64,000 nt of DNA from Mya arenaria (Eukaryota), in NCBI RefSeq assembly GCF_026914265.1, contig NC_069127.1, positions 1,745,682 to 1,809,681 of the forward strand, read 5' to 3'. This document shows positions 14,791 to 36,668 of the stretch, in pieces. The number at the start of each line of letters is the position of its first letter. Position 1 is the stretch's first letter. The position numbers and the translations under genes are program-made. The notes beneath the pieces were generated by a model, which worked only from the letters and a program-made list of their open reading frames with translations, did no database searches and was not told where the DNA came from.

Positions 14791-14904
14791 ACAATGCCCA
14801 TGGAGACTCTGGAACAGAGAGTTGAACCTATTGATTCACCGATTGATTCACCGGTGGAAGAATCAGATGATGATCAGCCTGCATCTAGACAATTGTTCCA
14901 TATG
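14791..14904 (+). CDS. Candidate coding exon, possibly with the initiator ATG at 14794 (MPMETLEQRVEPIDSPIDSPVEESDDDQPASRQLFHM)
   Basis: Acceptor ttttccaatag, an ATG in acaATGc context, and donor gtaatt. The product is acidic and Pro/Ser-rich. It ends in phase 0. Confidence 0.3.
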
Positions 14905-15599
14905 GTAATTTATTATCAACCTCTTAAGATAGATTTATATATTCAGACTATGTGTAGAATAGCAGGTTCAGTCATTTTTCTGTTTATAAACACCTACCTT
15001 TGAATTTCAGGTTGTTGTTTTTTTCTTTACATCTGTCCCAGTTAAAGCTGCGCTCTCACAGATTTACTGTTTTTACGTTTATTATTTTTTTAAACATGGA
15101 TGCGTAAATATCTAAAAACCAATGGTAAAAGATTGCTGACAAAAGATCAGATTTGCATATTTCCGTTCGAAAATTAATGTTTAATGGCTTAAACCATTAC
15201 GAACAGTTAAAGAAAACTGCATAAAACATTAATTTTTGAACTGCAATATAAAAATGTGTGATTTAATTATTTGTCAGCAGTCTTATATCACTAGTTTCGA
15301 TGGATTTTTGCAAGATAAAAATTAAAAAAGTTGTTCTGTCTGTAAGAGTGCAGCTTTAATTGTATAATTTTATTTTTTTATTTTCTTCATTTAAGTATCA
15401 GCAGGTTAACCCACAGAAATACAATGTGTTCAAAAAATTTCTACTGAAATATTACATAAGGCTTGTGATTTGGCTATGTTTTTGCAGATTTCCGCAGATC
15501 TAATGACTTCAGGGATCAAAAATATCATTCATTTGTTTTAGTTACTAAAAAAAGTAAGCTTGCTGCTATTAGTTGTTTCATTGTTTGTTATATATTCTC

Positions 15600-15740
15600 C
15601 AGTTTGTTTAAAATTAGAAATCCACAAAACCCTTAGTCAAGAGAACCCTTAGTCAAGAAAACCCTTTGTCAAGAGAACACTTAGTCAAGAGAACCCTTAG
15701 TCAAAAGAATCATTAGTCAAGAGAACCCTTTGTCATGGGC
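15600..15740. repeat. 19-bp tandem repeat (cccttagtcaagagaaYcc), about 7 units
   Basis: Read directly from the sequence. Confidence 0.85.
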
Positions 15741-16391
15741 ATTATTTGATCTCAAATAGGGTGTAAAACACCCGCAAAAGCCATCGCTGAAATGATTTCA
15801 GCTATTCAGCTTGACTACCAGGGCAATCACATTGCTGGATTCCCATTGATCAAGATCATGCATATATTTTCTACAACCAGCATGTTTCCAGTTAGTCAAT
15901 AATTGGTTTTATTAGGGGGGTAGTTTAGAAGCTCCTGTATGTGGACTGTCTAGGTTATAAGTATTTCACACTCATCACTAAAAAGGCTTCCATTTATTTA
16001 GTCTTTTAAGCCAATATTTCAGTGAGAGGCTGCACCAGCCCTGCCAACTTTAATATTTGTCAGGAAGACCAAAAATTAACACTGACTATTACATGGATAT
16101 AATTGTATAACGTTATGACTTAATTGACAACTAATTCAAATTCCTAAGATCATTCTCATGGTTTAAGAACATTTTTCAAAAAAACACAACATATAGCAAT
16201 CCCAGAAAAAGGTCTAATTCAGGTAAAGATACACCGCATGTAACTGTCATTCAATTTAAAATGATTTGGTAAATTTTCATAACCAAGATTTATCACAATG
16301 GAACCGTTCGACAATGTTTTATAAACAATACAGTATTAGTTTTCAATGTCCCATACAAAACTGTTTTGTTTTTCTTCTGTCTGGACAAAAG

Positions 16392-16609
16392 GCAGTTAGA
16401 GGTGGAAGAACTAGGCAGACTGCCCGCAAGTCCACGGGAGGAAAAGCTCCTAGAGGTCCGTCTCCAGAATTGATCGCCAAAGTTCTGGAACCTGATCAAT
16501 CCGTGGAATATGAAGCATGTGAACTCCAACCTAAGAGGTCCAGATCCAGGGAGCGGGACATATATATGAAAGACTACAGGCCTGATGTATCAGAATATGT
16601 AGTACAACG
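16392..16609 (+). CDS. Coding exon whose product carries a histone H3 N-terminal tail-like stretch (GRTRQTARKSTGGKAPRG)
   Basis: Open frame of 72 codons after the pyrimidine-rich acceptor ...ttcttctgtctggacaaaag, ending at a GTATGT donor. QTARKSTGGKAPR is identical to H3 residues 5-17, but K4 is replaced by R. The rest of the exon (PSPELIAKVLEPDQSVEYEACELQPKRSRSRERDIYMKDYRPDVSEYVVQR) does not resemble histone. Confidence 0.4.
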
Positions 16610-16829
16610 GTATGTATTATTATCATTAATGGTATGAAAAGCATGTTCATAGGTAATCGTTTGAATGCACTCTATCAACTTCTGACAATCAAATGCCTTA
16701 CCCCACTTTTTCCTACATTATCCATTTTTTCCATTTATGGTGAATAATTTCAACTATTCCAGCTTATGTTATGCACTTGTAATTTTAACTAGCTATAATA
16801 TTACCAGCTATTCTGCATTTTGATTTTGC

Positions 16830-17900
16830 CATATAGTTATATATCTTGGGGCTGGCTATTTAAGAGTTGCCCCTCTGTGTCTCATATATCTTGGGGCTGG
16901 CTATTAAGGAGTTGCGTCTGTGTCACATATCTTTGGGCTGGCTATTTAGGAGTTGCCCCTGTCTCATATATCTTGGGGCTGGCTATTTAGGAGTTGCCCC
17001 TGTCTCATTTATCTTTTGGCTGGCAATTTAGGAGTTGCCCTTGTCTCATATATCTTGGGGCTGGCTATTTAGGAGTTGCCTCTGTCTCATATATCTTGGG
17101 GCTGGCTATTTAGGAGTTGCCCCTGTCTCATATATCTTGGGGCTGGCTATTTAGGAGTTGCCCCTGTCTCATATATCTTGGGGCTGGCTATTTAGGAGTT
17201 GCCTCTGTCTCATATATCTTGGGGCTGGCTATTTAGGAGTTGCCTCTGTCTCATATATCTTTGGGCTGGCTATTTAGGAGTTGCCTCTGTCTCATATATC
17301 TTGGGGCTGGCTATTTAGGAGTTGACCCTGTCTCATATATCCTGGGGCTGGCTATTTAGGAGTTGACCCTGTCTCATATATCTTTGGGCTGGCTATTTAG
17401 GAGTTGCCCCTGTCTCATATATCTTGGGGCTGGCTATTTAGGGGCTGCCCCTGTCTCATATATCTTTGGGCTGACTATTTAGGAGTTGCCTCTGTCTCAT
17501 ATATCTTTGGGCTGGCTATTTAGGAGTTGCCTCTGTCTCATATATCTTGGGGCTGGCTATTTAGGAGTTGCCTCTGTCTCATATATCTTGGGGCTTGCTA
17601 TTTAGGAGTTGCCTCTGTCTCATATATTTTGGGGCTGGCTATTTAGGAGTTGCCTCTGTCTCATATATCTTGGGGCTGGCTATTTAGGAGTCGCCTCTTT
17701 CTCATATATCTTGGGGCTGGCTATTTAGGAGTCGCCTCTGTCTCATATATCTTGGGGCTGGCTATTTAGGAGTTGCCTCGGTGTCATATATCTTGAGGCT
17801 GGCTATTTAGGAGTTGCCTCTGTGTCATATATCTTGGAGCTGGCTATTAAGGAGTTGCCTCTCTCTCATATATCTTGGGGCTGGCTATTTAGAAGTTGCC
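16830..17900. repeat. 42-bp satellite (gctggctatttaggagttgccYctgtctcatatatcttgggg), about 25 units
   Basis: Read directly from the sequence. Confidence 0.95.
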
Positions 17901-18559
17901 TCTGTCTCGTCAATCATACGAGTTAACACCACCTCATGTCATATCACATCCCTGAAAAATCTTGTCATGCGAATAGCTTCAAAAGTATTGCACATATACA
18001 AATGAAACTTCATGTAAAGTTTAATCACCTTGGGAAAGCATGCACCTGTTATTTGTGTGACATGTCACTGACCACTGCACTCTTACTCCTGAATAAGATA
18101 TACTGCAATTAATTTGATATAGTTTAAATATTCCAAAAAGGATGACTAAATTTCGAAAACAATGGTTATTATGAAGGGTAGTGAGTTTAATTTGAATTTT
18201 TTTTTAGCATTAAACACAAGTTTATGAGACTATAGTGGATCACAGGAAACCTTTTAGCATACACCAATCATTTAACATTTTGCCTTTCTGCTATTCAATA
18301 CAAGGTTACATCTTGTTATCAGTCATTTATTACTTCCATAAATGCATTATTTATTAAGTAGTTAAAAGGTTTATCAGTCAAAATGGATGTTTGTTATACA
18401 TGTGTATGCATTGATTTTGAATAAGAGTGTCACTTAAGAGAATAAACGTCTGGACAATACAATTCCTGTGTCCAGGCAGCATCTTGGAAGTTTATCACTT
18501 CTGTAATGGTTCTTGTTTTGCTTTCTAGTTTCTGTAAGTGCGAGTAACATAGAGTTTTT

Positions 18560-19320
18560 ATCATTAGAAAGTTTAGTCACACTTTTTTAGACTCAGAATT
18601 ATGTCAGTTTATAAATCCTTTTGTTTTGAGTCTAGTCCAAGCTTCTTGGACTTAGATATGGGTTTATAAACCTTGTTGTTTTGAGTCCAAGCTTCTTAGA
18701 CACTGATATGGGTTAATGAACCTTACTGTTTTACGTCTAATCCAAACTTCTTGGATTCAGGTATGGGTTTTATTTTTAAGTCCAGTCCAAGCTTCTTAGA
18801 CTCAGATATGGGTTTAAATAGCTTGTTATTTTTAAGTTTATTTAAAGCTTCTTATCTTCAGATATGGGTTTATAGACATGGTTGTTTTGAAGTCTTGTCC
18901 AAGCTTCTTAGTCTCAGATATGGGGATATAAACCTTGTTGTTTTTAAGTTTATTTAAAGGTTCTTAGCTTCAGATATGGGTTTATATACATTGTTGTTTT
19001 TAAGTCTAGTCCAAGATCCTTTGCCTCAGATTTGGGTTTATTAACCTTGTTGTTTTGATTCTAGACCAAGCTTCTCAGACTCTGATATGGGTTTATAAAC
19101 CTTATTGTTTCAACGTCTTTTCCAAGCATCTTAGACCCTGAAATGGGTTTATAAACCTTGTTGTTTTGATTCTAGACCAAACTTCTCAGACTCTGATATG
19201 GGTTTATAAACCTTATTGTTTCAACGTCTTTTTCAAGCTTCTCAGACTCTGAAACGGGTTTATAAACCTTGTTGTTTTAAGTCAAGTTTAAGCTTTTTGG
19301 ACTCAGGTATGAGTTTATAA
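18560..19320. repeat. Satellite of about 58 bp (gggtttataaaccttgttgttttgagtctagtccaagcttcttagactcagatatg), about 12 units
   Basis: Read directly from the sequence. The units are more diverged than in the other arrays. Confidence 0.85.
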
Positions 19321-19501
19321 ATCTTGAAATAGAAATTCTTAATGGACATGTGTTTTAAAATCAAATGAAATCTAACAATAAATATATTTTTATGCATATT
19401 GTTTGATTTTATTTCGGATATTTATTTATGAAATCAAATGAAATGTCTTAACTTACTCTATAATGAAGAAGAACAAATTTTAAAATCTTACATTTTTGCA
19501 G

Positions 19502-19536
19502 GAAAATGAGATTTGATCCATCCTCTTCCCCTGAAT
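19502..19536 (+). CDS. Candidate 35-bp micro-exon (..KMRFDPSSSPE..)
   Basis: Textbook acceptor (ttttgcag) and donor (gtaagt). Its phase (needs 1 nt in, leaves 1 nt out) fits between the 16.4 kb and 22.3 kb exons. Confidence 0.2.
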
Positions 19537-19989
19537 GTAAGTTGCAAATATATTTGTTCTTTCAAGATAATCAAAGGCTTGGTTAAAAAAAATTCTCTAA
19601 TAACTGTGACATTTTTCATTAAATGATACCAAAATTATTTGTTTGTATTTAAAAAAAGTTTATAGACTTGTGTTTTGAGTTTAGAATTCACTTTTAATCA
19701 AACAAACAAGAATAGTGTAGTACCAGGTGGGATAGAAGGGTACTGGGCCACATTTCTAGGTCAATGACTAAAGTCTATGAAACCAGCTCAGCACACTAGT
19801 TACATTTTGATATAATTGTATAACATTGGTCTTAAAATGCCTATAAGCTGCAGCATTAAAGTAACAAAAGATCGTTTATTTTAAAACCCCAAAAATATTA
19901 ACATTTACATTTCTTGATTTTTGTTGAGAAATTGTTTCCTGGCAGCGGTGTCCTCATGATAATAGTCAATATTCCCTTAAACAGATCAA

Positions 19990-21850
19990 TTCTAAACTCT
20001 GAAGAGGCATGTATATGTTACATTGGAATACCCAAATCACATGTACTCTTCAACCAGCCCAAATCTATACTTATGTGCTACAATCCGAAATTCATGCTGC
20101 AAATGTGCTACAACTCCAAATTCATAAACTAATGTATTACAGCCCCATATTCATAAAACTAATGTGTAACAACCCCAAATTCATAGTCCTAAAGTGTTAC
20201 AGCCCCAAATTCATTGACTAATGTTTTACAACCCCAAATTCATAAACTAATGTGTAACAACCTCAAATTCATAGTCCTAAAGTGTCAAAGCCCCAAATTC
20301 ATAAACTAATGTTTTACAACCCCAAATTCATAGTACTTATTGCTACAACCACAAATTCATAGTTCTAATTGCTACGACCCCAAACTCATAGTACTAATTG
20401 CTACAACACCAAATTCATAGTACTAATTGCTACAACGCCAAATTCATAGTTCTAGTGTGTTATAACCCACAATTCATAGTACTAATTGCTACAACCCCAA
20501 ATTCATAGTACTAATTGCAACAACCCCAAATTTATAGTACTACTGTGTTACAACCCCAAATTCATAGTACTAATTGCTACAACGCCAAATTCATAGTACT
20601 TAAATGTGCTACAACCCCAAATTCACTATGCTAATTGCTACAACCCCAAATTCATAGTTCTAGTGTGTTACAACCCCAAATTCAAAGTACTAATTGCTAC
20701 AACCCCAAATTCATAGTATTAATTGCTACAACCCCAAATTCATAGTACTAATTGCTACAACCCCAAATTCATAGTTCTAGTGTGTTATAACCCACAATTC
20801 ATAGTACTAATTGCTACAACCCCAAATTCATAGTTCTAGTGTGTTATAACCCACAATTCATAGTACTAATTGCTACATCCCCAAATTCATACTTCTATTG
20901 TGTTATAACCCACAATTCATAGTACTAATTGCTACAACCCCAAATTCATAGTATTAATTGCTACAACCCCAAATTCATAGTATTAATTGCTACAACCCCA
21001 AATTCATAGTTCTAGTGTGTTATAACCCACAATTCATAGTACTAATTGCTACAACCCCAAATTCATAGTATTAATTGCTACAACCCCAAATTCATAGTAC
21101 TAATTGCTACAACCCCAAATTCATAGTTCTAGTGTGTTATAACCCACAATTCATAGTACTAATTGCTACAACCCCAAATTTATAGTACTAATTGCAACAA
21201 CCCCAAATTTATAGTACTACTGTGTTACAACCCCAAATTCATAGTACTAATTGCTACAACCCCAAATTCATAGTACTTAAATGTGCTACAACCCCAAATT
21301 CACTATGCTAATTGCTACAACCCCAAATTCATAGTTCTAGTGTGTTACAACCCCAAATTCAAAGTACTAATTGCTACAACCCCAAATTCATAGTATTAAT
21401 TGCTACAACCCCAAATTCATAGTATTAATTGCTACAACCCCAAATTCATAGTACTAGTGTGTTACTACCACAAATTCATAGTACTAATTGCTACAATCCC
21501 AAATTCATAGTAATAGTGTGTTATAACCCCAAATTCATAGTACTAATTGCTACAACCCCAAATTCATAGTACTAGTGTGTTACAACCCCAAACTCATAGT
21601 ACTAAATGCTACAACCCCAAATTCATAGTACTTGTGTGTTATAACCCCAAATTCATAGTACTAATTGCTACAACCCCAAATTCATAGTACTAATTGCTAC
21701 AACCCCAAATTTATAGTACTTATGTGCTACAACACCAAATTCATAGTACTAATTGCTACAACTCCAAATTCATAGTACTAATGTGTTACAACACCAAATT
21801 CATAGTACTAATATGCTACAACACCAAATTCATAGTACTAATGCGCTACA
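19990..21850. repeat. 29-bp satellite (ctaattgctacaaccccaaattcatagta) with a higher-order variant (ttctagtgtgttataacccacaattcatagta), about 60 units
   Basis: Read directly from the sequence. Confidence 0.95.
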
Positions 21851-22288
21851 ACCCTTAATTCTTATACTTAAGTGTTTCAATCTTGGCAAATATAATTCTG
21901 TAAGCTGGATAGGCATTGACATAGGATTTGGCAAAACTGGAAACAATCATGAGACCCTTAATGTCAGCCAAGTAATCGCTTTTGTAATCATATTTTCCTG
22001 TTCTCAATGAAGTGGTTAAAACATATGTAAAAATGTATGGGAATATTTGTAAACAAAGGTGATTGCAATTCATAAATATAAGATAGTTAAGCACATGCTT
22101 TTTGCTATATAGATATGATTGCAGTATAGAATGGAAAATTGAACCTCGGTCAAGTTGTGCTGCTGGTTACTGGGCATGTCCTTTACCAGCCTGATTATGT
22201 GCCCTTGGACTGGATTTGCTAAATCCTCACACAATCACATAACATTTATTATTCTTACTTATATCACTTTTGTTTTTGTGTACTTCAG

Positions 22289-22480
22289 CCTCTAAGCTTG
22301 GTAGAGATGTAAAAATGTCAGAGGACACTAACCTCGCAGTGTTAGAGTCACATGATAATGATAAGGAGGAAATGAGGATTGTAGGAGGTGGAGCCTCTTC
22401 CCTCTTGATGGATGAGGGAGAAGAAGAGGAGGAGAATGAGGAGGACGAGGATATGGGGTTTGGCCTGTTTGATGATGATG
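22289..22480 (+). CDS. Coding exon with a ribosomal stalk P-protein-like acidic tail (IVGGGASSLLMDEGEEEEENEEDEDMGFGLFDDD)
   Basis: Acceptor tgtacttcag and donor gtgagt. The EEDEDMGFGLFD stretch matches the conserved C-terminus of P0/P1/P2 proteins, but here it is internal, followed by DDD and a splice donor. Phase: needs 2 nt in, leaves 1 nt out. Confidence 0.4.
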
Positions 22481-22885
22481 GTGAGTGCATAGGAAACTGA
22501 TATAGCTTTTTTATCCATTACTACCATTAGATTTGATGTAATGACTGGCGTCATATCAAGTACTAACTTGGTCTCCAATCTAGTATTAGAAAAAATGGCC
22601 ATCTTTCATAATTATGATGGGACATACATTTTCTGCTTTTTCTTTTGCATTATTTTTATGGAATTCTTATTCAGATAGAGTAATATTATTTTTTACTGTA
22701 CAAAATTCGAAATGCTATTGCACCTTTAATTGTTTTTTCTTGGCAAAAAACTATACTGGCTGAATGGTTTTGATTAAAAAGAAAGGGAAAAGAACTTATA
22801 ATTATGTTTGTTTTAGATCTATGTAAAATTTTATTGACCAACTATCTCTTTCATTATAATTAATAAAAGTAACAAGCAACTTTAA

Positions 22886-24480
22886 TTATGCCCCCCTTCG
22901 AAGAAGAGGGGTATATTGCTTTGCACAGGCATGTCGGTATGTCGGTCGGTCGGTCGGTCCGTCGGTAGACCAAAGCTTGTCCGAGTGATAACTCAACAAT
23001 TCCTGGACGTATGGTCATCAAACTTCACATGAAGGTTGGGCCTAACCAGTAGATGACCCCTATTGTTGTGATAATTTTAAAGCTTGTCCGAGTGATAACT
23101 CAACAATGCCTGCACCCATGGCCCTCAAACTTGACATGGAGGTTGGGCCTGACCAGTAGATGACCCCTATTGTTTTTAGGGATCATCAGGCCAAAGGTCA
23201 AGGTCACAGTGACCTTGAATGGTAAAAGGTTGTCCGAGTGATAACGTGACAATGCATGCACCCATCAAACTTGACTTGGAAGTTGGGCCTGACCAGTAGA
23301 TGACCCCTATTGTTTTCGGGGGTCATTGGGCCAAAGGTCAAGGTCACAGTGACCTTTAATGGTAAAAGGTTGTCCGATAGATAACTCAACAATGCCTGCA
23401 CCCATGGCCCTCAAACTTGACTTGGAGAATTGGCCTGACCAGGAGATGACCCCTATGGTTTTTGAGGGTCATCTGGCCAAAGGTCAAGGTCACAGTTACC
23501 TGGAATGGTAAAAGGTTGTCCGAGTGATAACTCGACAATGCCTGCACCCATGGCCCTCAAACTTGACTTGGAGGTTGGGCCTAGCCAGAAGATGGTCCCA
23601 ATTGATTTAAGGGGTCATTGGGCCAAAGGTCAAGGTCACAGTGACCTGGAATGGTAAAAGGTTATCTGAGTGATAACTTGACAATGGCTGCACCCATGGC
23701 CCTCAAACTTGATTTGGAGGTTGAGCTTGGCCAGAAGATTGTCCCTATTAATTGTAGGGGTCATTGGGTCAAAGGTCAAGGTCACAGTGACCTTGAATGA
23801 TAATAGGTTGTCCAAGTGATAACTCAACAATGCCTGCACCCATGGCCCTGAAACTTGACATGGAGGTTGGGCCTGACCAGTAGATGACCTCTATTGATTT
23901 TAGGGTCAAAGGTCAAAGTCACAGTGACCTTGAAAGCAAACTCGACAATTCTTGGACCTATGGTCATCAAACTTGACATGAAGGTTGGGTCTGAACAGTA
24001 GATGACCCCTATCGACTTTGGGGGTCATCAGGCCAAGGTCAATGTCACAGTAACCTTTAACGCAAAAAAGAACAAATCTTCCCCCACTGATATCTCAACA
24101 ATGCCTGAACCTATGATCATTAAACTTGACATGGATGTTAAGCCTGAACAGTAGATCACCCTTATTGATTTAGGATTCATAGAGCTAAAGGTTAAGGTCA
24201 CAGTGATCTTGAATGGTAAAAGGTTGTCCGAGTGATAACTCAACAATGCCTGAACCTGTGGCCTTCAAACTTGACTTGGAGTTGCATCTGACTTGAAGAC
24301 TTATGATTTAAGGGGTCATCCAGTCAAAGGTCAAGGTCACAGTGACCTTGAACAAAAAAAAACTTGTCTTGTGATAACTTGACAATGCCTGCACCCATGG
24401 CCCTCAAACTTGACATTTAGGTTTCTGGTGACCAGCTGATGACTCTGGATTTTGAGTTCATAGAGTCAAAGGTCATGACG
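22886..24480. mobile_element. Composite pearl-like element: hairpin head (ttatgccccccttcgaagaagaggggtatat), (GTCG/GTCC)n microsatellite, then about 12 tandem 125-bp units
   Basis: Each unit contains ggccaaaggtcaaggtcacagtgacct. The same head, tetranucleotide and tandem-unit architecture recurs at 41320 and 42690. It resembles published bivalve pearl/CvA-type elements (from memory). Confidence 0.6.
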
Positions 24481-24605
24481 GTCATAACACACTTTATCCT
24501 CACACTTTAATGGTCATAATCTTAAAACAGCAACAAATCAGCTGTCATTTCGGTCCATGCATATTTCATTCAATTGTCCATATAATCCTGACAACATGGC
24601 GCTCA

Positions 24606-24622
24606 GGGGGGGGGGGGGGGGG
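24606..24622. repeat. G17 homopolymer
   Basis: Read directly from the sequence. Confidence 0.9.
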
Positions 24623-24839
24623 CATAATGTTTGACAAACATCTCTTGTTTAAGGGGGTCCTGCAGGACAGCTACCTGCATTTATTGAAGTACAACATATA
24701 GTTTTGTTGGCACCCCTCAAGTTGACATATAGATATGTTTACATCTTTCAATGTTGTGCACTGAACGATGGTCTTTTCATCCCCTATGAAAAAAGTGAAC
24801 TGTTTCAAGACCTGCATTATGAGGCCCTCAAAACATATA

Positions 24840-26400
24840 TGTAGGCTATCTCTTGGTTATCAGAGATGGGTATGAGGCCGTCATGAGAAACATCTGTATC
24901 TTTGGGTTATCAGAGCTGGGTATGAGGTCCCACAAACATCTGGGGTATAAGATTTGGATGAGGCAGCCAAAAACATCTGTGGTGTATAAGATCTGGATAT
25001 GAAGCAGCCATAAACATATGTGAGGTAAAAGATCTGTGTATGGAGAAGTCAGGAACAATTGTGGTGTGCAATTGTGAGTTGTCAGATCTAGATATGAAGG
25101 GACCAGGAACATCTGTGGGGTATATGATCTGGGTATGAGGCAGTAAGGAACATATGTGAGATAAAATATCTTAGTATAAGGCAGCCGTAAACATCTGTGG
25201 GGTATAAAATCTGAGTAAGAGCATCAATAAAGATCTGTTAGGTATAAGATCTGGGTATGAGGTAGCCATAAACATCAGTGGGGTATAAGATCTGGGTATA
25301 AACCAACCATAAACATCTGTGGAGTATAAGATCTTGGAATATAGGGAGCCATGAAAATGTGTGGAGCGTAAGAAAAGGGTATGAAGCAGCCTGAAACATC
25401 TGAGGGTTATAAGATCCGGGTATGATGCAGCAAGAAACATCTGAGGGGTATAACATCATGGTATGACGCAGCCAGAAACATCTGTGTGTGAGGTACAAGA
25501 TCCAGGTTTGAGGTGGCCAGAAACATCTGTGGTGTATAAGATCTGGGTATGAGGCAGGATTTTTTTTTTGTGGGGAATAATATCTGGGTATGAGGCAGCC
25601 AAAACCATCTGTGAGGTATGAGATCTGGGTATGAGGCAGCCATAAACTTCTGAGGGGTATAAGATCTGGGTATGAGGCAGCAAGAAACATCTGCGGGGTA
25701 TTACATCATGGTATTTAGCAGCCAAAAACATCGGTGGGGTATAAGATCTGGATATGAGGCAGCCAGAAACATCTGTGGGGTATAACAACATGGTATGACA
25801 CACCCAAAACATCTTTGGGGTATAAGATCCGGGTTTGAGGCAGCCAGTAACATCTGTGGTGTAAAAGATCTGGGTATCAGGTAGCCAGAAACACCTGTGG
25901 GGTATTATATCTGAGTATGACGCAGTCAGAAACATCTGTGGGGTATAAGATCTGGGTTTGAGGTGGCTAGAAACATCTTTAGTGTACAAGATCGGGGTAT
26001 GTCGCAGCAATAAACATCTGTGGAGTGATCTGGGTATGAGGCAGCCAGTAACATCTGAGGTGTATACTATCTGTTTATGAGGCAGCCAGTAACATCTGTG
26101 GTGTAAAGATCTGGGTATGAGGTAGCCAGAAACATCTGTGGTGTATAGGATCTGGGTATGAGGTAGCCAGAAACATCTGTGGTGTAAAGATCTGGGTATG
26201 AGGTAGCCAGTAACATCTGTGGTGTAAAGATCTGGGTATGAGGTAGCCAGAAACATCTGTGGTGTAAAGATCTGGGTATGAGGTAGCCAGAAACATCTGT
26301 GGTGTAAAGATCTGGGTATGAGGTAGCCAGAAACATCTGTGGTGTAAAGATCTGGGTATGAGGTAGCCAGAAACATCTGTGGTGTATAGGATCTGGGTAT
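24840..26400. repeat. 40-bp satellite (atctgggtatgaggtagccagaaacatctgtggtgtaaag), about 38 units
   Basis: Read directly from the sequence. The 317-aa minus-strand ORF here is a repeat artefact. Confidence 0.95.
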
Positions 26401-26892
26401 GAGGCCCATTACTCAGTATTTATTACCCATTACTTGTTCAGAATGGTCATTAATATTCCCATCATTCACATTCACAAGTTGTGAAGCAAGAAGAGAGAAG
26501 AGATCAGTTCAGTCCCATAATCAATAAGTTTCTTGTGCTCATTAATAGGGGTTTCCTGTTCATATTTGGTCTGATTTTGATATTGACAGTTCCAAATTTC
26601 ACTTGATTTGATGAAATGTATTTTTCAACCTGATAATCATGCAAGTGTTAGCCTTTTTCTCTTTGTAAAAAGTGTATTCTGGTGGACAACTTCTTAGGTC
26701 TAAATACTAAAAGATGATCTTATAAATAAATTCCAAGATAAGTATAAGTTTAGGATATTTCCTTTAAAATGTTAAGGTTAAGATATTTTACAAAAAACAG
26801 AAATCAATATTAAATTAAATTACAGCCAGATTTTTTACGTTCAAGTATGAATATCCCTTTTTGATAAACAATGTTGTTTTCTTTTTTTCTAG

Positions 26893-27729
26893 CAGAAGAT
26901 GCTTTAGATACAACCAAATCTAAAATGAATTTTGGAGAAAAACAGACTGCCATCACAGCTTCTTTTGCACACAAAATTGATGCTCAGGATGAAAGCAAGC
27001 AAGGACCTCCAGCAGTTTCATGGAGAAAAGTTGGTGAACCAAGATATCACTCAACAACAGCAGTATTGGGGAAGAATTCTGCATTTGAATTTGGGCTTCA
27101 ACAAACGCTCATGGAAAGAACAAGTTACAAACCACAGGCTTTTGGAGAAATTTGTTCAGCACCACCACCGCCACCTTTCCCTCAACAGGGAGGCTACTTT
27201 AGGCCCTACAGTCAACAATCTAGTAACCTTGCTTCCAATGGGCGTCATGCAACACTACAGTTCACGCAAAATGCAGAGCTTCCACCTCCAGGAGCACCGC
27301 CTCCTCCAGGTGCGCCTCTGGCTCCACATTTCCGTGCTAAGGTGCTTGCACCACCTCCACCTCCAGGTGCACCACCTTCTCCTCCAGTTGAGCCTCTGGC
27401 TCCACCTATCCATGCTAGGCCCCCTGCACCACCTCTACCTCCAGGTGCACCGCCTTCTTCTCCAGGTGTGTTTCTGGCTCAACCTCTCTCTGTGAAGGCC
27501 CCCGCACCACCTCCACCTCGACGTGCACTATCCAAAAGTCTGGCTCCACCTCTCCCTGCCAGGGCAGCTGCACCACCTCCCACTCGAGGTGCCCCTTCCC
27601 CAACTCTAGGTGCATCTCTGCGCCAAGCTCTCTCAACTGGGACCCCGGCACCACCTCCTACTGGACCTGCTGGCTTGAAAGCTCCACCTCTACAAAAATT
27701 TGCTTCCTGTTCTGTAGTCTCTTACGAAC
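26893..27729 (+). CDS. Large coding exon for a proline-rich, internally repetitive (FH1/WASP-like polyproline) protein segment
   Basis: 279-codon open frame in AT-rich DNA, acceptor ttttctag and donor gtaagt. It contains repeated PPPGAPPxPP(V/L)xPLAPP blocks. Phase: needs 2 nt in, leaves 1 nt out. Confidence 0.55.
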
Positions 27730-28129
27730 GTAAGTGTCTACATTTTTATGATTTGTTTTCTTAAAAGAAATTAGAAAATCAAATTCATCACATAAATAAT
27801 GCATTGAGGCCTAAACATACAACACAGTATGTCTTAATGATTTATAATTTTTATTTGAAGTAGCAAAATGCTTATGACATCATTCTGTTCATCATGTTTT
27901 AAGTAATGTTGCAATGTTGACCTGGTCAATATGGTTAAAATCATTAGAAATGTACCTGCAACCAGTCGTGTAGATCTTTGTTCAGTTTTCCACTGGTTAT
28001 CTTTTGGCTAGCTCATTAAAACAATTTGATTGGTAAGTAGTAAATATTAGATATATATTGACCAATCAATAAACAATTTTGATAGTTTTGACGAAACCGA
28101 AAACTTAAAACAGTTTTAAACAATTGGCC

Positions 28130-28946: not shown

Positions 28947-29010
28947 CAAAGGCTGCAGTCATGGGTGGGGGAGCTGGAGTAATACCATTGTCATCGAAGG
29001 CTATACCGAG
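28947..29010 (+). CDS. Candidate small exon (..KAAVMGGGAGVIPLSSKAIP..)
   Basis: Acceptor cgttaacag and donor gtaggt. Open frame. Its phase chains with the 26.9 kb and 29.6 kb exons. Confidence 0.2.
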
Positions 29011-29593: not shown

Positions 29594-29679
29594 AGATAGG
29601 GAGAAAGTTGAATCCCAAACGAGGAAATATAAACCCAATGAGAGGATGGCACTTGCACATAAACTGACAAGTACAGCAG
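29594..29679 (+). CDS. Candidate small exon (..DREKVESQTRKYKPNERMALAHKLTSTA..)
   Basis: Acceptor tttttaatgcag and donor gtatat. Open frame. It leaves 1 nt, which matches the phase needed by the first Hsp70-like exon. Confidence 0.2.
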
Positions 29680-29799
29680 GTATATAAGGCTTAAGTACAT
29701 GTAGGTGTTTTTCAAAACCCCAAATTATAACAAGTGGGGTTTTAAATTGTTGACATGCATTTTTTTATAGACCACAACTGTTCTCTAAGATCTGTACAT

Positions 29800-31150
29800 T
29801 AAGGAATCAATTGACATGGCTATTAATACTGGTTAATCGATATCATACTTGTTGGGGACTTCAACCTTAATGCCTCTCCGCAAATTTCTAATGCCACATT
29901 GTGTCGAGAGTATGGTCTCACTCAATGTAAATGAGCCAACTCATTTCACAGAATCTCATCGTCTATAATTGACTAGTATTTCTGAAAAACACTAGATACT
30001 TCTAAGAGGTGTTGTGATCCTTTTTGTCGACCAATGAGTCTTTTTTCATTGCCCAGCATATGTGGTTGTTTTCTTCAAATTTTGTAAACCTAAACACATA
30101 TTGGAAGTGATAATGATAATCTCAAAACAGTTACAATGCCTCCTTCTTCCTCTCAATCATACAGCTTAACAGCTCTGATATAAAACCTCCACTATATTCT
30201 CTGCCATTTGGAAAGGCTGTTGGGCCAGTTACATTAAACAATAGAATCTTAAAAGAACTCTGTCATGCTGGCTCACCCACTCTGTGATCTTTTCTACTTT
30301 TCACTCTCAATATCTGCTTTTCCAGAATCATGGAAAGTTGCTAATGTTTGTAATGTTAGGGCTTCTAAAAACTGACAGTTTGCCTGTCTGGACCGATTTT
30401 GACTATGCTGGAACGATTTCAGGAATGGAATCAGTCCAAACATGTGGTAGATCACAGGAGATACATTTTGCTGACTACGTAATGCAAATATTTTGGACAT
30501 TGTTTGCCGTGTTATTTTGATCATGTCCGAAATAAACCTTACTTTTTTATAGGCTTTGTGTATATACAGACTAAATGGCAGGTTTCAATACACATTTCAT
30601 TAATTGTTACATGAATTTATCTGCAATTATCAATGCTTATTTATTACGCCTAATGTCAGTCCCATCAACTGCAATCCAAACAAACTACTTGCGAATGTTT
30701 AACTTATTAACACATGTATTGAAATGTGTCATATGTGTCGGCTGCAAATCAAATGATACACTTTGTGATGTCAAAACACAAGCAGTGTAGAGATTAAAGG
30801 CGCGTGGCAATTTATATATTTAAATCAGTCAATCGTACACCGTATGATTCCATTTAACTCGAAGCTGGTTAACCAACTAACCATGTGTACCATGTGTGCG
30901 TCTAGATTGGTTAGAATATACCATGCGTGTTGTTTTCTGCGACATTGGTTAAGCATTTGACCATGTTTGCCATGCAACCCTACTGTCTTTTTAACATGTC
31001 AATGATTTCTGTGAAAATATGTTTTGTTTGCTTTGTAGCCAACTACAAAATAGATAACATAATTATAAAGTGTTGGACTTCATCCCTTCATCCTATTAAA
31101 GCAGGTGTATCACAAGGTTCAATTTTAGGTCATTTTTTCACTCCATGATT
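29800..31150 (+). pseudogene. Degraded non-LTR retrotransposon (LINE) fragment covering the endonuclease C-terminus and RT N-terminus
   Basis: Frameshifted pieces. ILVGDFNLN is an APE-endonuclease motif. FPESWKVANV is the RT domain-0 motif. AGVSQGSILGHFF is the RT GxxQGSxLxP motif. No frame is continuous. Confidence 0.5.
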
Positions 31151-31760
31151 ATAATTTTTTATACAGTATAACCCTTTTGAATTTTCATATATGTTTTTCA
31201 TTAAAATATCATTATATTTGATCAGCTCCATTTATAGGACATAAGCATATATAACATAATTTAAAACACTTTTGAACGCACTTATCCTTATAGACAAACA
31301 AATAAGATACACTTAACTGCTTTCTACAGCAGCAGATGATCTTTTTAAACTTTTAGCTTCGAATTAAAGTCTTAAATATTTAATATGAAATATTTTTTGT
31401 CATGAAATAGATATTTAATATGAAATATTTTTTGTCATGAAATAGATATACTTAAACCAAGGATTTCTACACATGCTATATGGGGCAAAGAAACTTAATC
31501 TGTTTCAACTAAAATTCATATATTACCATGACAGATCTCATAATATAAGAATGTTGAGAAATACCTTTTTCATTGGCCATTTCAGTGAAGTTTATTGTGA
31601 AAAAGATTATCAATTATTATGTTTACAATTATAAACCAGATATTGTTTACACTTTATCATTGTTACATTTAAATTCAATTATAATCTTCATCATCTTTCC
31701 TTTCAAGACAAAAGAATGAATAAAAAGATATTGTCATAATGACATGCTGTACTGTTGAAG

Positions 31761-31946
31761 ATTCAAGAGAGAAATCGGCTCAGCTGCTGTTGTTGGATGT
31801 AACGCCGTTGTCCCTGGGGGTTGAGGTGATGGGCGGGGTCATGCGTGTCATTATACCAAGAAATAGCACCATCCCGACTAAGAAGAATTTGATGTTCTAC
31901 CCTCCTAATGACAGCAATGGGGAAGTTGTAGTGAATGTTTATGAAG
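31761..31946 (+). CDS. Hsp70-family protein, substrate-binding-domain exon A (start uncertain between 31728 and 31761)
   Basis: Translation ..[63 protein letters not shown] aligns with the Hsp70 linker and SBD-beta (DLLLLDVAPLSLGIETAGGVMT.LIKRNTTIPTK...VLIQVYEGER). Donor gttagt. An in-frame stop at 31721 limits the 5' extent. Confidence 0.6.
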
Positions 31947-32222: not shown

Positions 32223-32408
32223 GAGAGCGCCCACATGTTGTGGACAACCACCATCTCGGCGTTGTAAAGCTTGCTGTTTCCACACCAAGAACGTCTGCAC
32301 CAACTATAAATGTTACGTTTGACATAGATGCAAATGGAATTTTGCGTGTTACAGTTATGGATACAGTTTTGAACACCGTTAACAGTATCCAAATAGCAAA
32401 TGAACAAG
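32223..32408 (+). CDS. Hsp70-family protein, SBD exon B
   Basis: [46 protein letters not shown]...IQIANEQG matches Hsp70 [45 protein letters not shown]...ITITNDKG. Acceptor cctcactttcag and donor gtattg. The phase joins exon A as YEG|ER. Confidence 0.65.
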
Positions 32409-32764: not shown

Positions 32765-32887
32765 GTCGACTGAGTCGAGAAGAGATTGAGAGGCAGGTGG
32801 GTGGATCGGAACAGTCAAAAGAACTTGATGATACAGTTTGGAAAGCAAACAAGACAAACATGACCTTACCATCACCATATAAAGGAG
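32765..32887 (+). CDS. Hsp70-family protein, exon C (GRLSREEIERQV...)
   Basis: GRLSREEIERQVGGSEQSKELDD matches Hsp70 GRLSKE(E/D)IERMVQEAEKYKAEDE. Acceptor gtgttttag and donor gtaata. The phase is consistent with exons B and D. Confidence 0.6.
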
Positions 32888-33033
32888 GTAATAAAATAAT
32901 ATTATTACCAATACAAAGAATTGCAAAAAGCCCCCAGCTCAGTTACTTTAATAGCAATGTAAAGTAATCATTGTTGTATGGATATTGTATCATTGTGTTT
33001 ATTTACTAAACAGTCTTGTTTTTTGTTCTTCAG

Positions 33034-33146
33034 AAGAGGTTCACCTCGAGGAATATGGAATAGGAGTGTCTTTTAGTACATGTGTCTCGGGAAAGTCATC
33101 CTTGACTCTTGCAAATATCACACGATTGTTGCAATTACAAAACAAG
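33034..33146 (+). CDS. Hsp70-family protein, exon D (divergent lid region)
   Basis: Open frame EEVHLEEYGIGVSFSTCVSGKSSLTLANITRLLQLQNK. Acceptor ttttttgttcttcag and donor gttagc. Phase consistent. Confidence 0.45.
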
Positions 33147-33626
33147 GTTAGCCTGTAAAGCATTTCTACAGATGTTTGTGCTTTAAAACTAACTGCAACA
33201 AGCAGACATTGGTTTTGTAGCAGAAGGGACATATGTGGGAAATACTGTGTCAATATTTTATTATATGTGACTATAATTAGATTGGCTGCCCCCATGGTCT
33301 GGCAGTTTTAAAGGTCATTGTTACTTCAAGGTCATTTCCATACCTATACTCTGTTTGCTATATATAATCAAAATATACATGAATGATAGTATTGTTACTT
33401 ACAAATCAATGTACACAAGCTTATAAACAGTTTGATAGTAATTTACATATTTTTGTAAGAACAATTTATAAAATTAAGCCCCTGGGAACACAAATTGATT
33501 ACAATTTTGTTGTGGTTTTGAAAGTAACTGAGAATAGGCTTATATGTTGTTAGACATTTTTGTAACATAAGTAATGTTTTGTAATATTGTAGTTAAACTA
33601 TTCTCCAATATGGTATTAATTTTCAG

Positions 33627-33726
33627 GAAGGATATTGGACTTTCACTCCAGAACTTGAGAAAATAATTGGAATTAACTTCTCTGTTTGTGAAAGGGTATT
33701 GAAAAATGCAGGACTTTCCTCACTTG
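33627..33726 (+). CDS. Hsp70-family protein, exon E
   Basis: Open frame EGYWTFTPELEKIIGINFSVCERVLKNAGLSSL. Acceptor ttaattttcag and donor gtaagt. Phase consistent. Confidence 0.45.
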
Positions 33727-33759
33727 GTAAGTTGCATAATAGTACATTCAGGTATGATT

Positions 33760-34870
33760 GTTACAATTGAAGGTAATTTTGCCAATGTAGCAGTTGAAAG
33801 TTCACTGTGTTGGATAATTTGCTAATGTTACTAGGTACTAGTATAGGTTCAATTGCCAATGTTACAATTAAATGTTAACTGTATGGTATAAGTTACCAAC
33901 AATACTAGTATAGATCCAATTGCAAGCAATTGAAGGTTTACTCACTGTAGGATACAAGATACAAGAATCTTTATTTCAAGTCGGGTGTATGTTAACAAGA
34001 AACATTAGCTCATTGAGCTATATTTTCCGACACAAATAACAGACATACAAAACATATCAAATAAAAATAACAATGAGCTTGTGACCTGGAAATTAATAAA
34101 TGGATCATTTGCCAATGTAACTAATTTACTGGTAGGTCCCATTGCCAATACAGCAATTCAGGTTTACTGTGTAGAATCACTTGCCAATTTAACTTTTTAA
34201 GTTTAGGGTCAATTGCCAATACAGCCATTAAGATTTACCGTGTAGAATCACTCGCCAATATAACTTTTTAAGTAAATGTTCAATTGCCAATACAGCAATT
34301 AAGGTTTACTGTGTAGAATCACTTGCCAATATAACTAGTAAAGGTCCAATTGCCAATACAGCAATTAAGGTTTACTGTGTAGAATCACTTGCCAATATAA
34401 CTAGTAAAAGTCCAATTGCCAATACAGCAATTGAGGGTTACTGTGTAGAATCACTTGCCAATATAACTAGTAAAGGCCCAATTGCCAATTCAGCAATTAA
34501 GGGTTACTGTGTAGAATCACTTGCCAATATAACTAGTAAAGGTCCAATTGCCAATTCAGCAATTAAGGTTTACTGTGTAGAATGACTTGCCAATCTAACA
34601 AGTAAAGGTCCAATTGCCAATTCAGCAATTAAAGTTTACTGTGTACTATCACTTGCCAATATAACTAGTTAAGGTCCAATTGCCAATTCATCAATTAAAG
34701 TTTACTGTGTAGAATGACTTGCCAATCTAACAAGTAAAGGTCCAATTGCCAATACAGCAGTTAAGGTTTATGTGAAGATTGTAGAAACACTTGCCAATGT
34801 CACTAGTAAAGGTCCAGTTGCCAATGTTACTACCTAGTAAAAATGTTTACTGCATCTGATCAGTTGCCAA
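33760..34870. repeat. Satellite of about 63 bp (ccaattgccaatacagcaattaaggtttactgtgtagaatcacttgccaatataactagtaaaggt), about 17 units, inside an intron of the Hsp70-like gene
   Basis: Read directly from the sequence. It lies between exons E and the terminal exon. Confidence 0.9.
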
Positions 34871-35219
34871 TTTAACAAGTATACATGTAGGTCCTATTGC
34901 CGAAGGTTCAATTGATGAAGTCATTCTTAGCTTGTCTTTTTAAAGAATAAGGAGGCTAAACTTCTTGCGTCTGAATCAGTGTCTGTATTGGCATCTGATT
35001 AAAGTTTTTGGGCAAGTTGGTATTTTCACTTATAACCCTAATACCCTTCATTCAATTTACTTAATACTTCACACAGTTAATACGATCACACAATGAGTAT
35101 ACACAACTCCATATCAATCCTAAATACAATTTATAACCTTTGAATATTTTTTTCTCACTTTTTTGGCTTTTGACAGGCACATTTTTATGGTTTTAACCAG
35201 TTTTTCACAAAGTGAATCC

Positions 35220-35830
35220 TGGTTATTAGAATGATGTACGTCTTTGTTTGAGTGGGCCAGCAGCGTCAAACTCAACTATGGTATGAAATATTTAATTTTG
35301 TTAGAATTGACATAAAGTGACCAAACTTGGTATGTAGGAAGAATTCATGGAGAACCTTCATGGAAAACGTTTGGGTCCGCTAGGGTCAAAGTGAATCCCA
35401 CTGTTACTTAAATTAGGAAAATGGTTGATACTGATTAACTTTAGTCAGGGTTGACATATAGTGACCAAACTTGATATATAGGAAGAGTTTATAGAGACCT
35501 TTCATAGGATTGTGTTTGGGGCTCGAGAGTCATGGTCAAGGGAAAGGTCACCATTCTAAAAATAGAAAAATGGTCAGTACTGCATATCTTTAGTTATGTG
35601 TCCAATAAAGAGTTTATGGAAACCTTTCATGGGATCGGGTTTTGGGCCCATAGGATCAACATCACTGTAACTAAAACTGGAAAAGCGTTTGATACTGAAT
35701 AACTTTAGTTAGGGTTGTCACATTGCACTCAGCTTGATTTACAGAAAAAGTAGATGGAGGACTTCCATGGATTGCATTTGGGGCCCCTAAAATGAAGGTC
35801 AAGGTCACTGTCTTTAAAAATAGAAGAAAA
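35220..35830. repeat. Tandem repeat of about 190 bp, about 3.3 units, related to the ggtcaaggtcac...aaaaatagaaaaa repeats
   Basis: Units at about 35220, 35410 and 35600 share ttgacatatagtgaccaaacttg, ggtcaaggtcac and ttctaaaaatagaaaaatggt blocks. Confidence 0.7.
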
Positions 35831-36264
35831 ACAACAACAGTTGAAACTGAATCTCACAACAAAGTCTGTAGATCTTCTGTCAATCATTGAATACCTGGTC
35901 GCAATGCTGAGTTTCTTGATTACTTTTTAACTTGACTTTTTTATTCCTTTTGACAGGGAAATAATACAGCATTATCGTATGTATTTCTAAGACAAAGCAG
36001 CTTATAGTCGAGCGCGCTGTCCTACAACAGCTCTGATTTTGTCAATGCTGTCATATAATCATTATTTTGAAAAATGTCACATGTTCTTTTTATTGAAATA
36101 ATTATACCATTATATATCATACAGTAGTAGTTTCAGACAGCATGTCAAACAGAGAACGAACTTTGTAAGATAAAAAAATGTTTTTTCATTTGTTAAATCT
36201 GATTATTATATACATGTGTAGTATATAATAGGTGAAACTTTATTTTTGTTTGTATGCTTTTTAG

Positions 36265-36668
36265 GTTCCAAAGTCGGTGAGGAGATAAAGAGTCTGTTGT
36301 TGACGGTTATGGTCGGGCTGTGTGTACTCCAACTTCTCATCCCAGAGTTCTTTCCCAGCTCTTTCTCCAGGGAACTCCAACAAGCCTTACACGAGAAGTT
36401 GAAAACACGCCTCAGTGAGCTCGTCCACACAAATCAGATCACCAATGAGCAAGCTGGTGAGCTAGCACAAAGCCTGGAGCACTCTTTGGCGTATGGTAAT
36501 GAAGTCTACGAGAAATATCCAATGGTTTGTTCCATTTTGGAGCTTGGAACCTCATGGGGAGCTATTGGGGGGAAATTTCTTGGATTGTATAAGGAGGACA
36601 TGCCAAAAAGCATTACACAATCAACCATAAAGGAACAAACAACGTCAAGACATGAAACATTTGTTTAA
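36265..36668 (+). CDS. Terminal coding exon of the Hsp70-like gene, ending at TAA 36666-36668; C-terminal region not Hsp70-like
   Basis: 134-codon open frame after acceptor tgctttttag. The incoming phase matches exon E. It contains a hydrophobic stretch LLLTVMVGLCVLQLLIPEFF. The following DNA is AT-rich and looks like 3' UTR. Confidence 0.45.

Follow-up and report, generated by a model that had tools for sequence, protein, structure and literature searches.

A satellite-rich locus of the bivalve Mya arenaria may encode a chimeric protein that joins an Hsp70 fragment to a PARP4-type vault-interaction domain

Do the open segments found between 14.8 and 36.7 kb of a 64,000-nucleotide stretch of the Mya arenaria genome (contig NC_069127.1, positions 1,745,682 to 1,809,681; hereafter, the window) belong to one gene and, if so, what kind of protein does it encode? 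The initial annotation proposed that a chain of phase-compatible exons could form a single gene fusing a histone H3 tail, a ribosomal P-stalk tail, polyproline and an Hsp70 substrate-binding domain (SBD), or else represent two or three separate genes. The segments join into a 12-exon model (14794-36668, + strand; Table 1) of 2451 nt, which runs from ATG 14794 to TAA 36666-36668 and specifies 816 amino acids, i.e., an uninterrupted 816-codon open reading frame (ORF) extends across 12 exons flanked by AG and GT. With somewhat better than even confidence, we favor the reading that this is a single gene of 12 coding exons on the + strand for an 816-aa chimera, which we propose to be a vault-resident holdase or cargo adaptor. 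Transcription of all exons as one mRNA is what we infer from the sequence.

The seven exons listed initially have the AG/GT flanks, lengths and phases ascribed to them, and the peptide content of the chain is also as described; joined from ATG 14794, they are translated without a stop. A first chain with the Hsp70-like exons added gave an 813-aa ORF, which is superseded by the 816-aa model. The exon list turned out to lack one 100-nt exon, 33627-33726, which was added in the correction together with a donor at 32797. The exon 11 block was recognized through relatives that start with 'Q(E/K)DGxWEF...AGLKSLG', found in an exhaustive phmmer search with the last exon. Because exon 11 starts in phase 0, exon 10 must end at 32796; its donor, CAG/GTGGGT, scores 11.7 (top 0.1%) and belongs to the best-scoring donor class in the window. 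A longer version of exon 10 (32765-32887), spliced straight to 36265, is in frame but skips the conserved 100-nt MINT exon and has a weaker donor, and was rejected. With the junctions of the model, the corrected chain stays open to the TAA, and its stop falls exactly on the end coordinate, 36668, of the initial annotation.

The domain list was likewise incomplete, as the domain encoded by the last two exons had been overlooked. Residues 650-795 (exons 11-12) are homologous to the MINT/MVPID domain, the MVP-interaction domain of PARP4. The C-terminal 172 aa match human PARP4 in the PDB in two colinear segments, 1579-1632 and 1680-1707 (E 5.2e-6); exon 11 aligns with PARP4 1579-1616. PARP4 is the sole significant PDB match of this region, and the match spans the exon 11/12 junction, which is thus bridged by colinearity over PARP4 1579-1707 as the fifth such junction. 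A profile of the MINT family also matches PARP4 (E 2e-6). In PARP4, the MINT/MVPID domain comprises residues 1562-1724, docks the enzyme on MVP repeats 3-5 inside the vault, is sufficient on its own to package fused proteins into vaults, and contacts MVP via S1614, K1618 and R1689 (PMC12280208); no other human protein has a homolog of this domain (Suskiewicz et al., PMC10450202). S1614 and K1618 are kept in the window protein (..SSLGSK..). A PARP4-type domain of this kind makes an association of the protein with vaults probable, and we regard the vault link as a strong lead; by sequence, the domain is a member of the MINT family, and its MVP-docking function is predicted. An earlier interpretation of the last exon, as a Bcl-2-like or transmembrane segment, gave way to the PARP4 homology. 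The single-sequence AlphaFold model of the last exon alone is poor (pLDDT 54).

Upstream of this domain, residues 466-649 correspond to the 3' half of a cytosolic Hsc70-type gene and comprise a decayed ATPase stub, the LLLLD linker, a well-preserved substrate-binding β-sandwich and the first turns of the lid. Pfam PF00012 (HSP70) aligns residues 498-648 with profile positions 358-509 (E 1e-30), and the scores of 106.8-112.6 bits, against a cut-off of 20.6, place the segment in the HSP70 family, with only positions 358-509/527 of the 599 in the profile covered. A phmmer search of the PDB extends the match to Hsc70 residues 335-530, which are colinear across five exons (E 1.6e-36) and bridge four junctions. 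VMGGGAGVIP of exon 6 aligns with VLVGGSTRIP of Hsc70 at residue ~335, and KPNERMALAHKL of exon 7 with NPDEAVAYGAAV; both small exons, to which the initial annotation gave no origin, are therefore remnants of the Hsp70 ATPase domain. This remnant is a decayed stub of ~50 aa (Hsc70 335-381) and does not amount to an ATPase domain, and tblastn with full HSPA8 finds no further ATPase-domain pieces in the 64-kb window. At the other end, homology stops at lid helix A (GRLSREEIERQ), the next exon being MINT, so that the full lid and the EEVD tail are missing. A functional Hsp70 is thus rejected in favor of an Hsp70-derived fragment: as the ATPase domain is absent, there can be no ATP-driven chaperone cycle, and the fragment would be, at best, an ATP-independent binder. 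The SBD core is 53% identical to human Hsc70, and in our own alignment with the DnaK SBD the hydrophobic pocket residues are conservatively kept (I401V, M404M, F426F, V436V, I438V in DnaK numbering). A search with the Hsp70 plus C-terminal part as a protein query returns generic Hsp70s at up to 52% identity and no ortholog. The full 813-aa model finds only myxobacterial DnaK-like matches among 5.8 billion proteins, in a search that was swamped by polyproline words.

Is the joining of these parts seen in other genomes? An exhaustive phmmer search of 1.84 billion representatives with the last exon yields 18 relatives, including proteins from Pinctada imbricata (KAK3096544.1, named 'PARP4 MVP-ID C-terminal domain-containing protein' in UniRef), Haliotis asinina (XP_067674270.1, annotated 'PARP4-like') and Solemya velum (KAL5010402.1). 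We rebuilt the 13 exons of the Pinctada gene (VSWD01000007.1) exactly; the order of its product is polyproline, ...VSWRK..., EEDDDMAFSLFDD, ATPase remnant, Hsp70 SBD, and MINT. Polyproline, DDDMAFSLFDD, Hsp70 SBD and MINT all lie in one ORF, and the precomputed Pfam annotation of KAK3096544.1 lists HSP70 and PARP4_MVP-ID. The MINT exon of Pinctada is also exactly 100 nt long, phase 0 to 1, and the last junction is in the same Gly codon (..SLG/) in both genes. As in the window gene, the P-tail-like exon of Pinctada ends in phase 1, after ...MAFSLFDD; the exon joined to it is the ATPase-remnant exon, and the phase of the junction is that seen in the window, where an 837-nt phase 1-1 proline exon stands between the two and could be skipped with the frame kept. 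BLASTP between the two proteins aligns MINT (E 7e-22), the SBD region (1e-13) and the P-tail segment (14/22 identical, 1e-5); in addition, window exon 6 is weakly similar to Pinctada exon 4. The window gene and the Pinctada gene share the module set and the MINT introns; they do not share the module order or the introns of the Hsp70 part.

The Solemya protein consists of an acidic N-terminus, 'EEMCFPLFG', long polyproline and MINT, and has no SBD; locus L005 likewise has a 457-codon proline-rich ORF just upstream of two MINT exons. A counterpart of exon 11 is found in L002, L004, L005, L006 and L007. No Hsp70 SBD exons were found upstream of the MINT exons in L002, L005, L006 and L007, and in L002, L004, L006 and L007 the 3-9 kb that precede the two MINT exons contain no SBD. 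A metagenome scan with the MINT family alignment produced one short locus only. The simplest history appears to be that of an old 'proline-rich + MINT' gene, of the type seen in Solemya and L005, into which exon shuffling brought the 3' half of an Hsc70 gene, and the symmetric phase 1-1 exons fit such an origin. Exons 4 and 5 are both symmetric, so each can be skipped or inserted without loss of frame; together with the splicing pattern in Pinctada, this hints at exon shuffling or at cassette use of the proline-rich exon.

The remaining part of the protein, residues 1-455, is predicted to be disordered and holds copies of two tail peptides and a 180-aa proline-rich region. The peptide RTRQTARKSTGGKAPR in exon 2 is identical to residues 2-17 of histone H3 at 15 of 16 positions, with K4 replaced by R (tblastn E 1.8e-5). 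It is internal, not N-terminal, and the similarity stops after H3 residue 17; no Pfam histone match follows the tail, so the protein is not a histone, and a histone identity was rejected with only the tail motif present. The acidic run of exon 4 closes with the P-stalk tail motif EDEDMGFGLFDDD, and EEDEDMGFGLFD at the end of this exon is 65-76% identical to the tails of human P0, P1 and P2 (tblastn), EDEDMGFGLFD being identical to the P0 tail over its last 9-11 residues. Exon 4 terminates directly after ...MGFGLFDDD, and the motif, too, is internal: DD and 630 residues come after it. The Pfam Ribosomal_60s profile (PF00428) scores 15.5 bits against a cut-off of 28.1, over profile positions 71-88 only, which leaves the protein outside the family as a whole; identity as a P protein was rejected, as only the tail motif is present and the P-protein dimerization domain is not. 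The proline-rich region contains two PPPPP runs and PxxPxR motifs (PPLPAR, PPPPRR), and from their sequence the PPLPAR and PPPPP motifs would be SH3- or profilin-type ligands. The exons had been described as free of satellites, which holds for all of them but the proline-rich exon 5, inside which an in-frame 78-bp (26-aa) tandem repeat occupies 27281-27528. Searched against 5.8 billion proteins, the parts other than Hsp70 and the proline-rich region retrieve only three H3-containing vertebrate proteins, at E>1. Recent transposon capture of H3 and RPLP fragments was considered and rejected: the exons are single-copy, and the P-tail motif is common to Pinctada.

How strongly do these upstream exons belong to the chain? 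The initial annotation argued that chance would allow about one third of the junctions to be compatible; the phases are true, but the argument is weak by itself because exon borders can be tuned, and independent tests were therefore run. Every exon is single-copy within the window. GC content is 0.40-0.53 in exons vs 0.30-0.41 in introns. The splice sites are mostly in the top 0.1-10% of all AG/GT dinucleotides of the window; the acceptors at 31761 (top 39%), 33627 (25%) and 32765 (17%) fall outside the top 10%. A codon model trained only on exons 6-12 and the Pinctada gene was applied to exons 1-5 and to random intron segments: each of the five exons scores best in the frame demanded by the chain, with p of 0.006, 0.002, 0.025, <0.0003 and 0.0003, respectively. 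Without exon 3, exons 2 and 4 are out of frame with one another, and exon 3 is the sole phase-correct, stop-free AG..GT segment in the 5.6 kb between them, even at relaxed thresholds; the chance expectation for bridging exons of this kind is ~0.15. Finally, a naive dynamic-programming exon chainer, which was run with penalties of 8-16 bits and told only to finish at the acceptor of exon 6, picks out each of exons 1-5 and scores 170-198 bits, vs 0.7-47 bits in control intervals on either strand.

The claim of a single gene thus divides in two. From exon 4, the P-tail exon, to the stop codon it is well supported, by the colinearity with Hsc70 and PARP4 and by the Pinctada protein. For exons 1-3, with the H3 tail, the evidence comes from within the window, and on the basis of ORF, phases, splice sites, codon usage and the gene finder they are probably part of the same gene.

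Table 1. Coding exons and other features of the gene model in the window
Feature	Positions	Strand	Remarks
Exon 1 acceptor AG	14789-14790	+	
Exon 1	14794-14904	+	ATG with A at -3; 37 aa, acidic/Ser-rich; ends in phase 0
Exon 2	16392-16609	+	phase 0 to 2; holds the copy of the histone H3 tail
H3-tail mimic RTRQTARKSTGGKAPR	16407-16454	+	tblastn with H3, E 1.8e-5; six-frame motif scan
Exon 3	19502-19536	+	35-nt bridging mini-exon, phase 2 to 1
Exon 4	22289-22480	+	phase 1 to 1, symmetric; acidic run, then P-stalk-tail motif
P-stalk C-terminal tail mimic EEEENEEDEDMGFGLFD	22423-22473	+	tblastn with RPLP0/P1/P2, 65-76% identity
Exon 5	26893-27729	+	837 nt, phase 1 to 1, symmetric; ~90 aa mixed, then proline-rich
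Proline-rich region, residues 276-455	27162-27701	+	32% Pro
Exon 6	28947-29010	+	degenerate remnant of Hsp70 ATPase subdomain IIA (phmmer vs PDB Hsc70)
Exon 7	29594-29679	+	remnant of the end of the Hsp70 ATPase domain; Pfam HSP70 match begins here (residue 498)
Exon 8	31761-31946	+	interdomain linker LLLLD and first half of substrate-binding β-sandwich; weak acceptor
Exon 9	32223-32408	+	second half of substrate-binding β-sandwich (..VTFDIDANGIL..)
Exon 10	32765-32796	+	32 nt; start of Hsp70 lid helix A (GRLSREEIERQ)
Exon 11	33627-33726	+	100 nt, phase 0 to 1; first part of MINT/MVPID, EGYWTF...AGLSSLG
Exon 12	36265-36668	+	remaining MINT domain (PExFP ... YPMVCSILELGTSW ... LGLY) and 25-aa tail; TAA 36666-36668
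First AATAAA 3' of stop	37510-37515	+	~840 nt downstream; candidate polyadenylation signal, pattern match only

The exon chain could be cut at the exon 5/6 junction, which no homology bridges. Under this explanation, which we think improbable, two adjacent genes happen to be compatible in phase: an upstream gene of exons 1-5 (H3 tail, P-tail, polyproline) would end by read-through of the exon-5 donor to the stop at 27762-27764, only 11 codons further on, and a downstream gene for the Hsp70 fragment and MINT would start at one of the in-frame ATGs, 28961 (MGGGAG...) or 31739; the strong acceptor at 31708, which would truncate the upstream frame, also speaks for it. Yet in both Pinctada and Solemya a single ORF combines proline-rich and P-tail-like regions with MINT, and in Pinctada with the SBD as well, and the Pinctada P-tail exon is spliced straight to the ATPase-remnant exon in the phase seen in the window. 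At the junction itself, the exon 5 donor is in the top 1% and the exon 6 acceptor in the top 3%, and the decayed ATPase remnant of exons 6-7 is still in frame with both its neighbors; a 5'-truncated Hsc70 copy would, moreover, require an upstream promoter and exons for its expression. Much the same low probability attaches to a gene that starts later, with exon 3, exon 4 or 5' exons not seen here, exons 1-2 being pseudo-exons, parts of another transcript, or rare alternative 5' exons. The absence of homologs of exons 1-3, the lack of an H3-like peptide in Pinctada, the ATG present in exon 3, the loss of exons 1 and 3 by the chainer at the highest penalty, and the chance expectation of the bridging exon when taken alone all agree with a late start; against it, the strong exon 4 acceptor needs an upstream partner, the frame that the chain requires is open in exons 1 and 2, whose codon usage resembles that of the downstream exons, the exon 2 donor is in the top 1%, the chainer retains exons 1-4 at penalties 8-16, and identity to H3 at 15 of 16 positions cannot come from a chance ORF.

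Satellites and debris of retroelements crowd the locus, decay of the ATPase remnant is severe, identity of the SBD to Hsc70 is no higher than ~53%, and the N-terminal part is an orphan, all of which might be expected of a decaying chimeric relic, put together from H3, RPLP, Hsc70 and PARP4-like fragments by rearrangement or transposon capture, maybe transcribed, and without a selected function. This we judge very unlikely: 816 codons in 12 exons contain no stops or frameshifts despite ~50% divergence of the Hsp70 part, the core motifs and pocket residues of the SBD are kept while its flanks have decayed, the exons are single-copy and outside repeats, and the module set is maintained in Pinctada, with the MINT family conserved across molluscs.

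Several observations weigh against our preferred reading of a single gene for a vault-resident protein. Exons 1-3 have no homologs among 5.8 billion proteins, and no H3-like peptide is found in the Pinctada locus in any frame; the tails that the P-tail and H3 motifs copy work at a free C- or N-terminus, but both copies lie within the chain. The modules are ordered differently in the window gene and in Pinctada, and within the Hsp70-derived part the two genes have no intron position in common. Their SBDs are only 39% identical to one another, each being nearer to human Hsc70, and share only seven derived residues. The intron mismatch may mean that one fusion was followed by heavy turnover of introns, or that the capture took place twice, independently; the decayed ATPase remnants, which are weakly similar, would favor one fusion. 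As to the MINT domain, hmmscan finds no match to Pfam PF26156 (PARP4_MVP-ID), even at E 10, in the C-terminal 172 aa or in three relatives, either because the model is missing from the Pfam copy used or because it is too vertebrate-centered; the precomputed PF26156 matches that relatives carry are graded weak or faint. Foldseek finds no structural neighbors in the PDB. The PARP4 contact R1689 is Ile here, and the MVP residues that touch PARP4 are reported to be conserved only in vertebrates (Lodwick et al.); on both counts, MVP binding in molluscs is no more than a prediction. Last, the exon 8 acceptor at 31761 is poor (score -5.5), and a much better AG, with the best polypyrimidine/AG acceptor signal, lies out of frame at 31708 and leads to a stop 5 codons later. 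We rejected 31708 as the acceptor of exon 8 on account of this stop in the SBD frame, its strong signal notwithstanding; the pair could reflect regulated or inefficient splicing, isoforms coupled to nonsense-mediated decay, or an internal start at ATG 31739.

If the single-gene reading is correct, the protein might work as follows. The C-terminal MINT domain would dock it on the inner wall of the MVP vault shell, with the N-terminal 650 residues projecting into the vault lumen. There the lidless, ATP-independent SBD would act as a holdase for hydrophobic peptide segments, the H3-like peptide would recruit factors that recognize the H3K9/S10/K14 region, the P-tail peptide would hold factors that recognize the P-stalk tail, and the proline-rich motifs would capture proline-binding modules; the whole protein would be a vault-resident holdase or cargo adaptor. 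As the H3-like peptide is internal and carries K4R, it would suit K9-, S10- and K14-directed enzymes and readers, not those that need a free N-terminus; as the P-tail peptide is internal, it would offer no terminal carboxylate to those partners that use one. Binding to MVP and all of the client interactions are predicted here from the amino acid sequence. In its most specific form, this amounts to a non-enzymatic vault-loading adaptor of bivalves, in which MINT anchors an ATPase-less Hsp70 clamp and decoy H3 and P-stalk tails inside the vault, a tentative idea to which we give only a small chance.

Comparison with better-known proteins puts the proposed architecture in perspective. Like PARP4/VPARP (PDB structures: 9bw6 and 9bw7), the window protein has at its extreme C-terminus a domain that is predicted to be all-helical and is homologous over PARP4 1579-1707; it differs in having no BRCT, PARP catalytic, VIT and vWA domains, the payload being an Hsp70 fragment and a disordered motif-bearing region in place of an enzyme. 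With Hsc70 (HSPA8 type) it shares a linker and β-sandwich that are colinear with Hsc70 335-520; the ATPase domain (residues 1 to ~330) and the EEVD tail are absent, as is most of the helical lid. The Pinctada protein KAK3096544.1 is the closest in composition, with polyproline, an acidic run followed by M[GA]F[GS]LFDD, Hsp70 SBD and MINT; it has no copy of the H3 tail, polyproline comes first and not after the P-tail, and there is an extra 55-aa linker ahead of MINT. The P-stalk proteins P0, P1 and P2, whose tail is ...EESDDDMGFGLFD, have their counterpart in EDEDMGFGLFD, which, unlike theirs, is internal, without a free C-terminal carboxylate or a dimerization domain. Translational GTPases dock on the P-stalk tail. 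The same peptide is the docking site of the ricin A chain and Shiga toxin A1 (PMC5322317, PMC9823235), and we found no paper on P-tail mimics in non-ribosomal proteins.

Histone mimics occur in other non-histone proteins, such as the automethylation site of G9a, LIG1, and the tail of influenza NS1, and are 4-8 residues long. The peptide RTRQTARKSTGGKAPR resembles them and the H3 tail in keeping the ARKS (K9/S10) and GGK (K14) sites; it is far longer than the known mimics, has Arg at K4, and is not followed by a histone fold. Unlike the H3 tail, it is internal, so that readers needing the free Ala1 amine should not bind it. No paper on an Hsp70-MINT protein was found, and the combination is known only from uncharacterized database entries; the architecture is an undescribed one, assembled from known domains.

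Some further features of the locus and of its relatives are recorded here. The exon 5 acceptor is a tandem NAGNAG (TAG/CAG/, 26890-26895), so that this exon may start at 26893 or at 26896, both in frame and one Ala codon apart; the chainer favored 26896. The chainer also inserted a 168-nt phase 1-1 open segment, 23467-23634, within the 146-bp satellite of intron 4; given its weak donor and lack of homology, this segment is probably spurious. An extra 5' exon was proposed by the chainer at 13392-13454 (MFLAGPDLAKNIEWTADVIKP, donor GTGAGT), spliced to the 14790 acceptor; this candidate holds the CRE-like TGACGTCA at 13439. The spacer around it, 13319-13721, is unique sequence between two satellite arrays, is built of inverted repeats 13376-13442 and 13579-13720, and may belong to a mobile element instead of being a promoter or first exon.

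In the Pinctada locus (L001, 9288-10000, +), the frame of exon 1 is open for 54 codons upstream of the annotated ATG, just after a 219-codon Gly/Glu-rich ORF, and the database model may be 5'-truncated. The Pinctada intron that follows ..GRFQL aligns to about residue 462 of human HSPA8, which would place it close to the boundary of the deletion in HSPA8 isoform 2 (463/464). The top match in the search with the last exon was a 603-aa CFAP65-like protein of the psyllid Cyamophila willieti (KAL1457516.1), with eight tandem copies of a 40-aa unit, LSGDELSTLHTSVNTLFAFSNEVFEIEPMVCTYLSMK, resembling the MINT segment ..LAYGNEVYEKYPMVCSILELG; these repeats may be an artefact of annotation or assembly, or else a MINT fragment that has undergone an odd expansion in an insect.

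The surroundings of the gene are rich in repeats. Tandem arrays account for 37% of its intron sequence, reaching 58-65% in introns 2-4 (within 16610-26892) and 27% in intron 11 (33727-36264), and their periods are 41, 56/111, 29, 146/292, 41 and 66 bp (introns 2, 3, 4 and 11). More arrays lie at 3318-3657, 6660-11623 and 12352-14638, among them, immediately 5' of the gene, a 38-bp satellite of about 130 units and 24/48-bp arrays; no paper matching the satellite consensus units was found in the literature. Within intron 7 (30120-31145, +), short open stretches look by eye like reverse transcriptase and give no Pfam match. Downstream of the gene are a 169/336-bp tandem array (38913-40209), in which all three + frames are open over long stretches (..WPWGQNWPRPGG..), and a reverse-transcriptase ORF (46549-47124, +; Pfam RVT_1, E 9e-28). 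A tRNA-like element at 63498-63570 (-), which scores 34.4 bits with the Rfam tRNA model and to which ARAGORN assigns no anticodon, is probably a short interspersed element or a pseudo-tRNA.

What may be learned from this locus? On the genomic side, an intact gene persists with a third of its intron sequence turned into satellite arrays, and the grafting of half an Hsc70 gene between older exons, with symmetric phase 1-1 exons, offers a clean example of exon shuffling. On the functional side, the purpose of vaults has been an open question for decades, and to our knowledge PARP4, TEP1 and vault RNA are the only macromolecules known to reside in vaults besides MVP. The window locus, Pinctada and Solemya suggest that molluscs couple the same docking domain to quite different payloads, which here consist of an Hsp70 SBD and almost exact copies of two short peptides that are among the most conserved in eukaryotes. 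If the protein enters vaults, this payload names candidate clients, namely, unfolded peptides, H3-tail readers and writers, and P-stalk-binding factors. If the adaptor idea is true, bivalve vaults would sequester unfolded polypeptides, H3K9/S10/K14-directed enzymes or importins, and P-stalk-binding factors, among them perhaps translational GTPases or ribosome-inactivating toxins of the ricin/Shiga type; beyond PARP4 and TEP1, this would then be the first minor vault protein known to recruit cargo in nature, and it would provide a direct experimental handle on what vaults are for.

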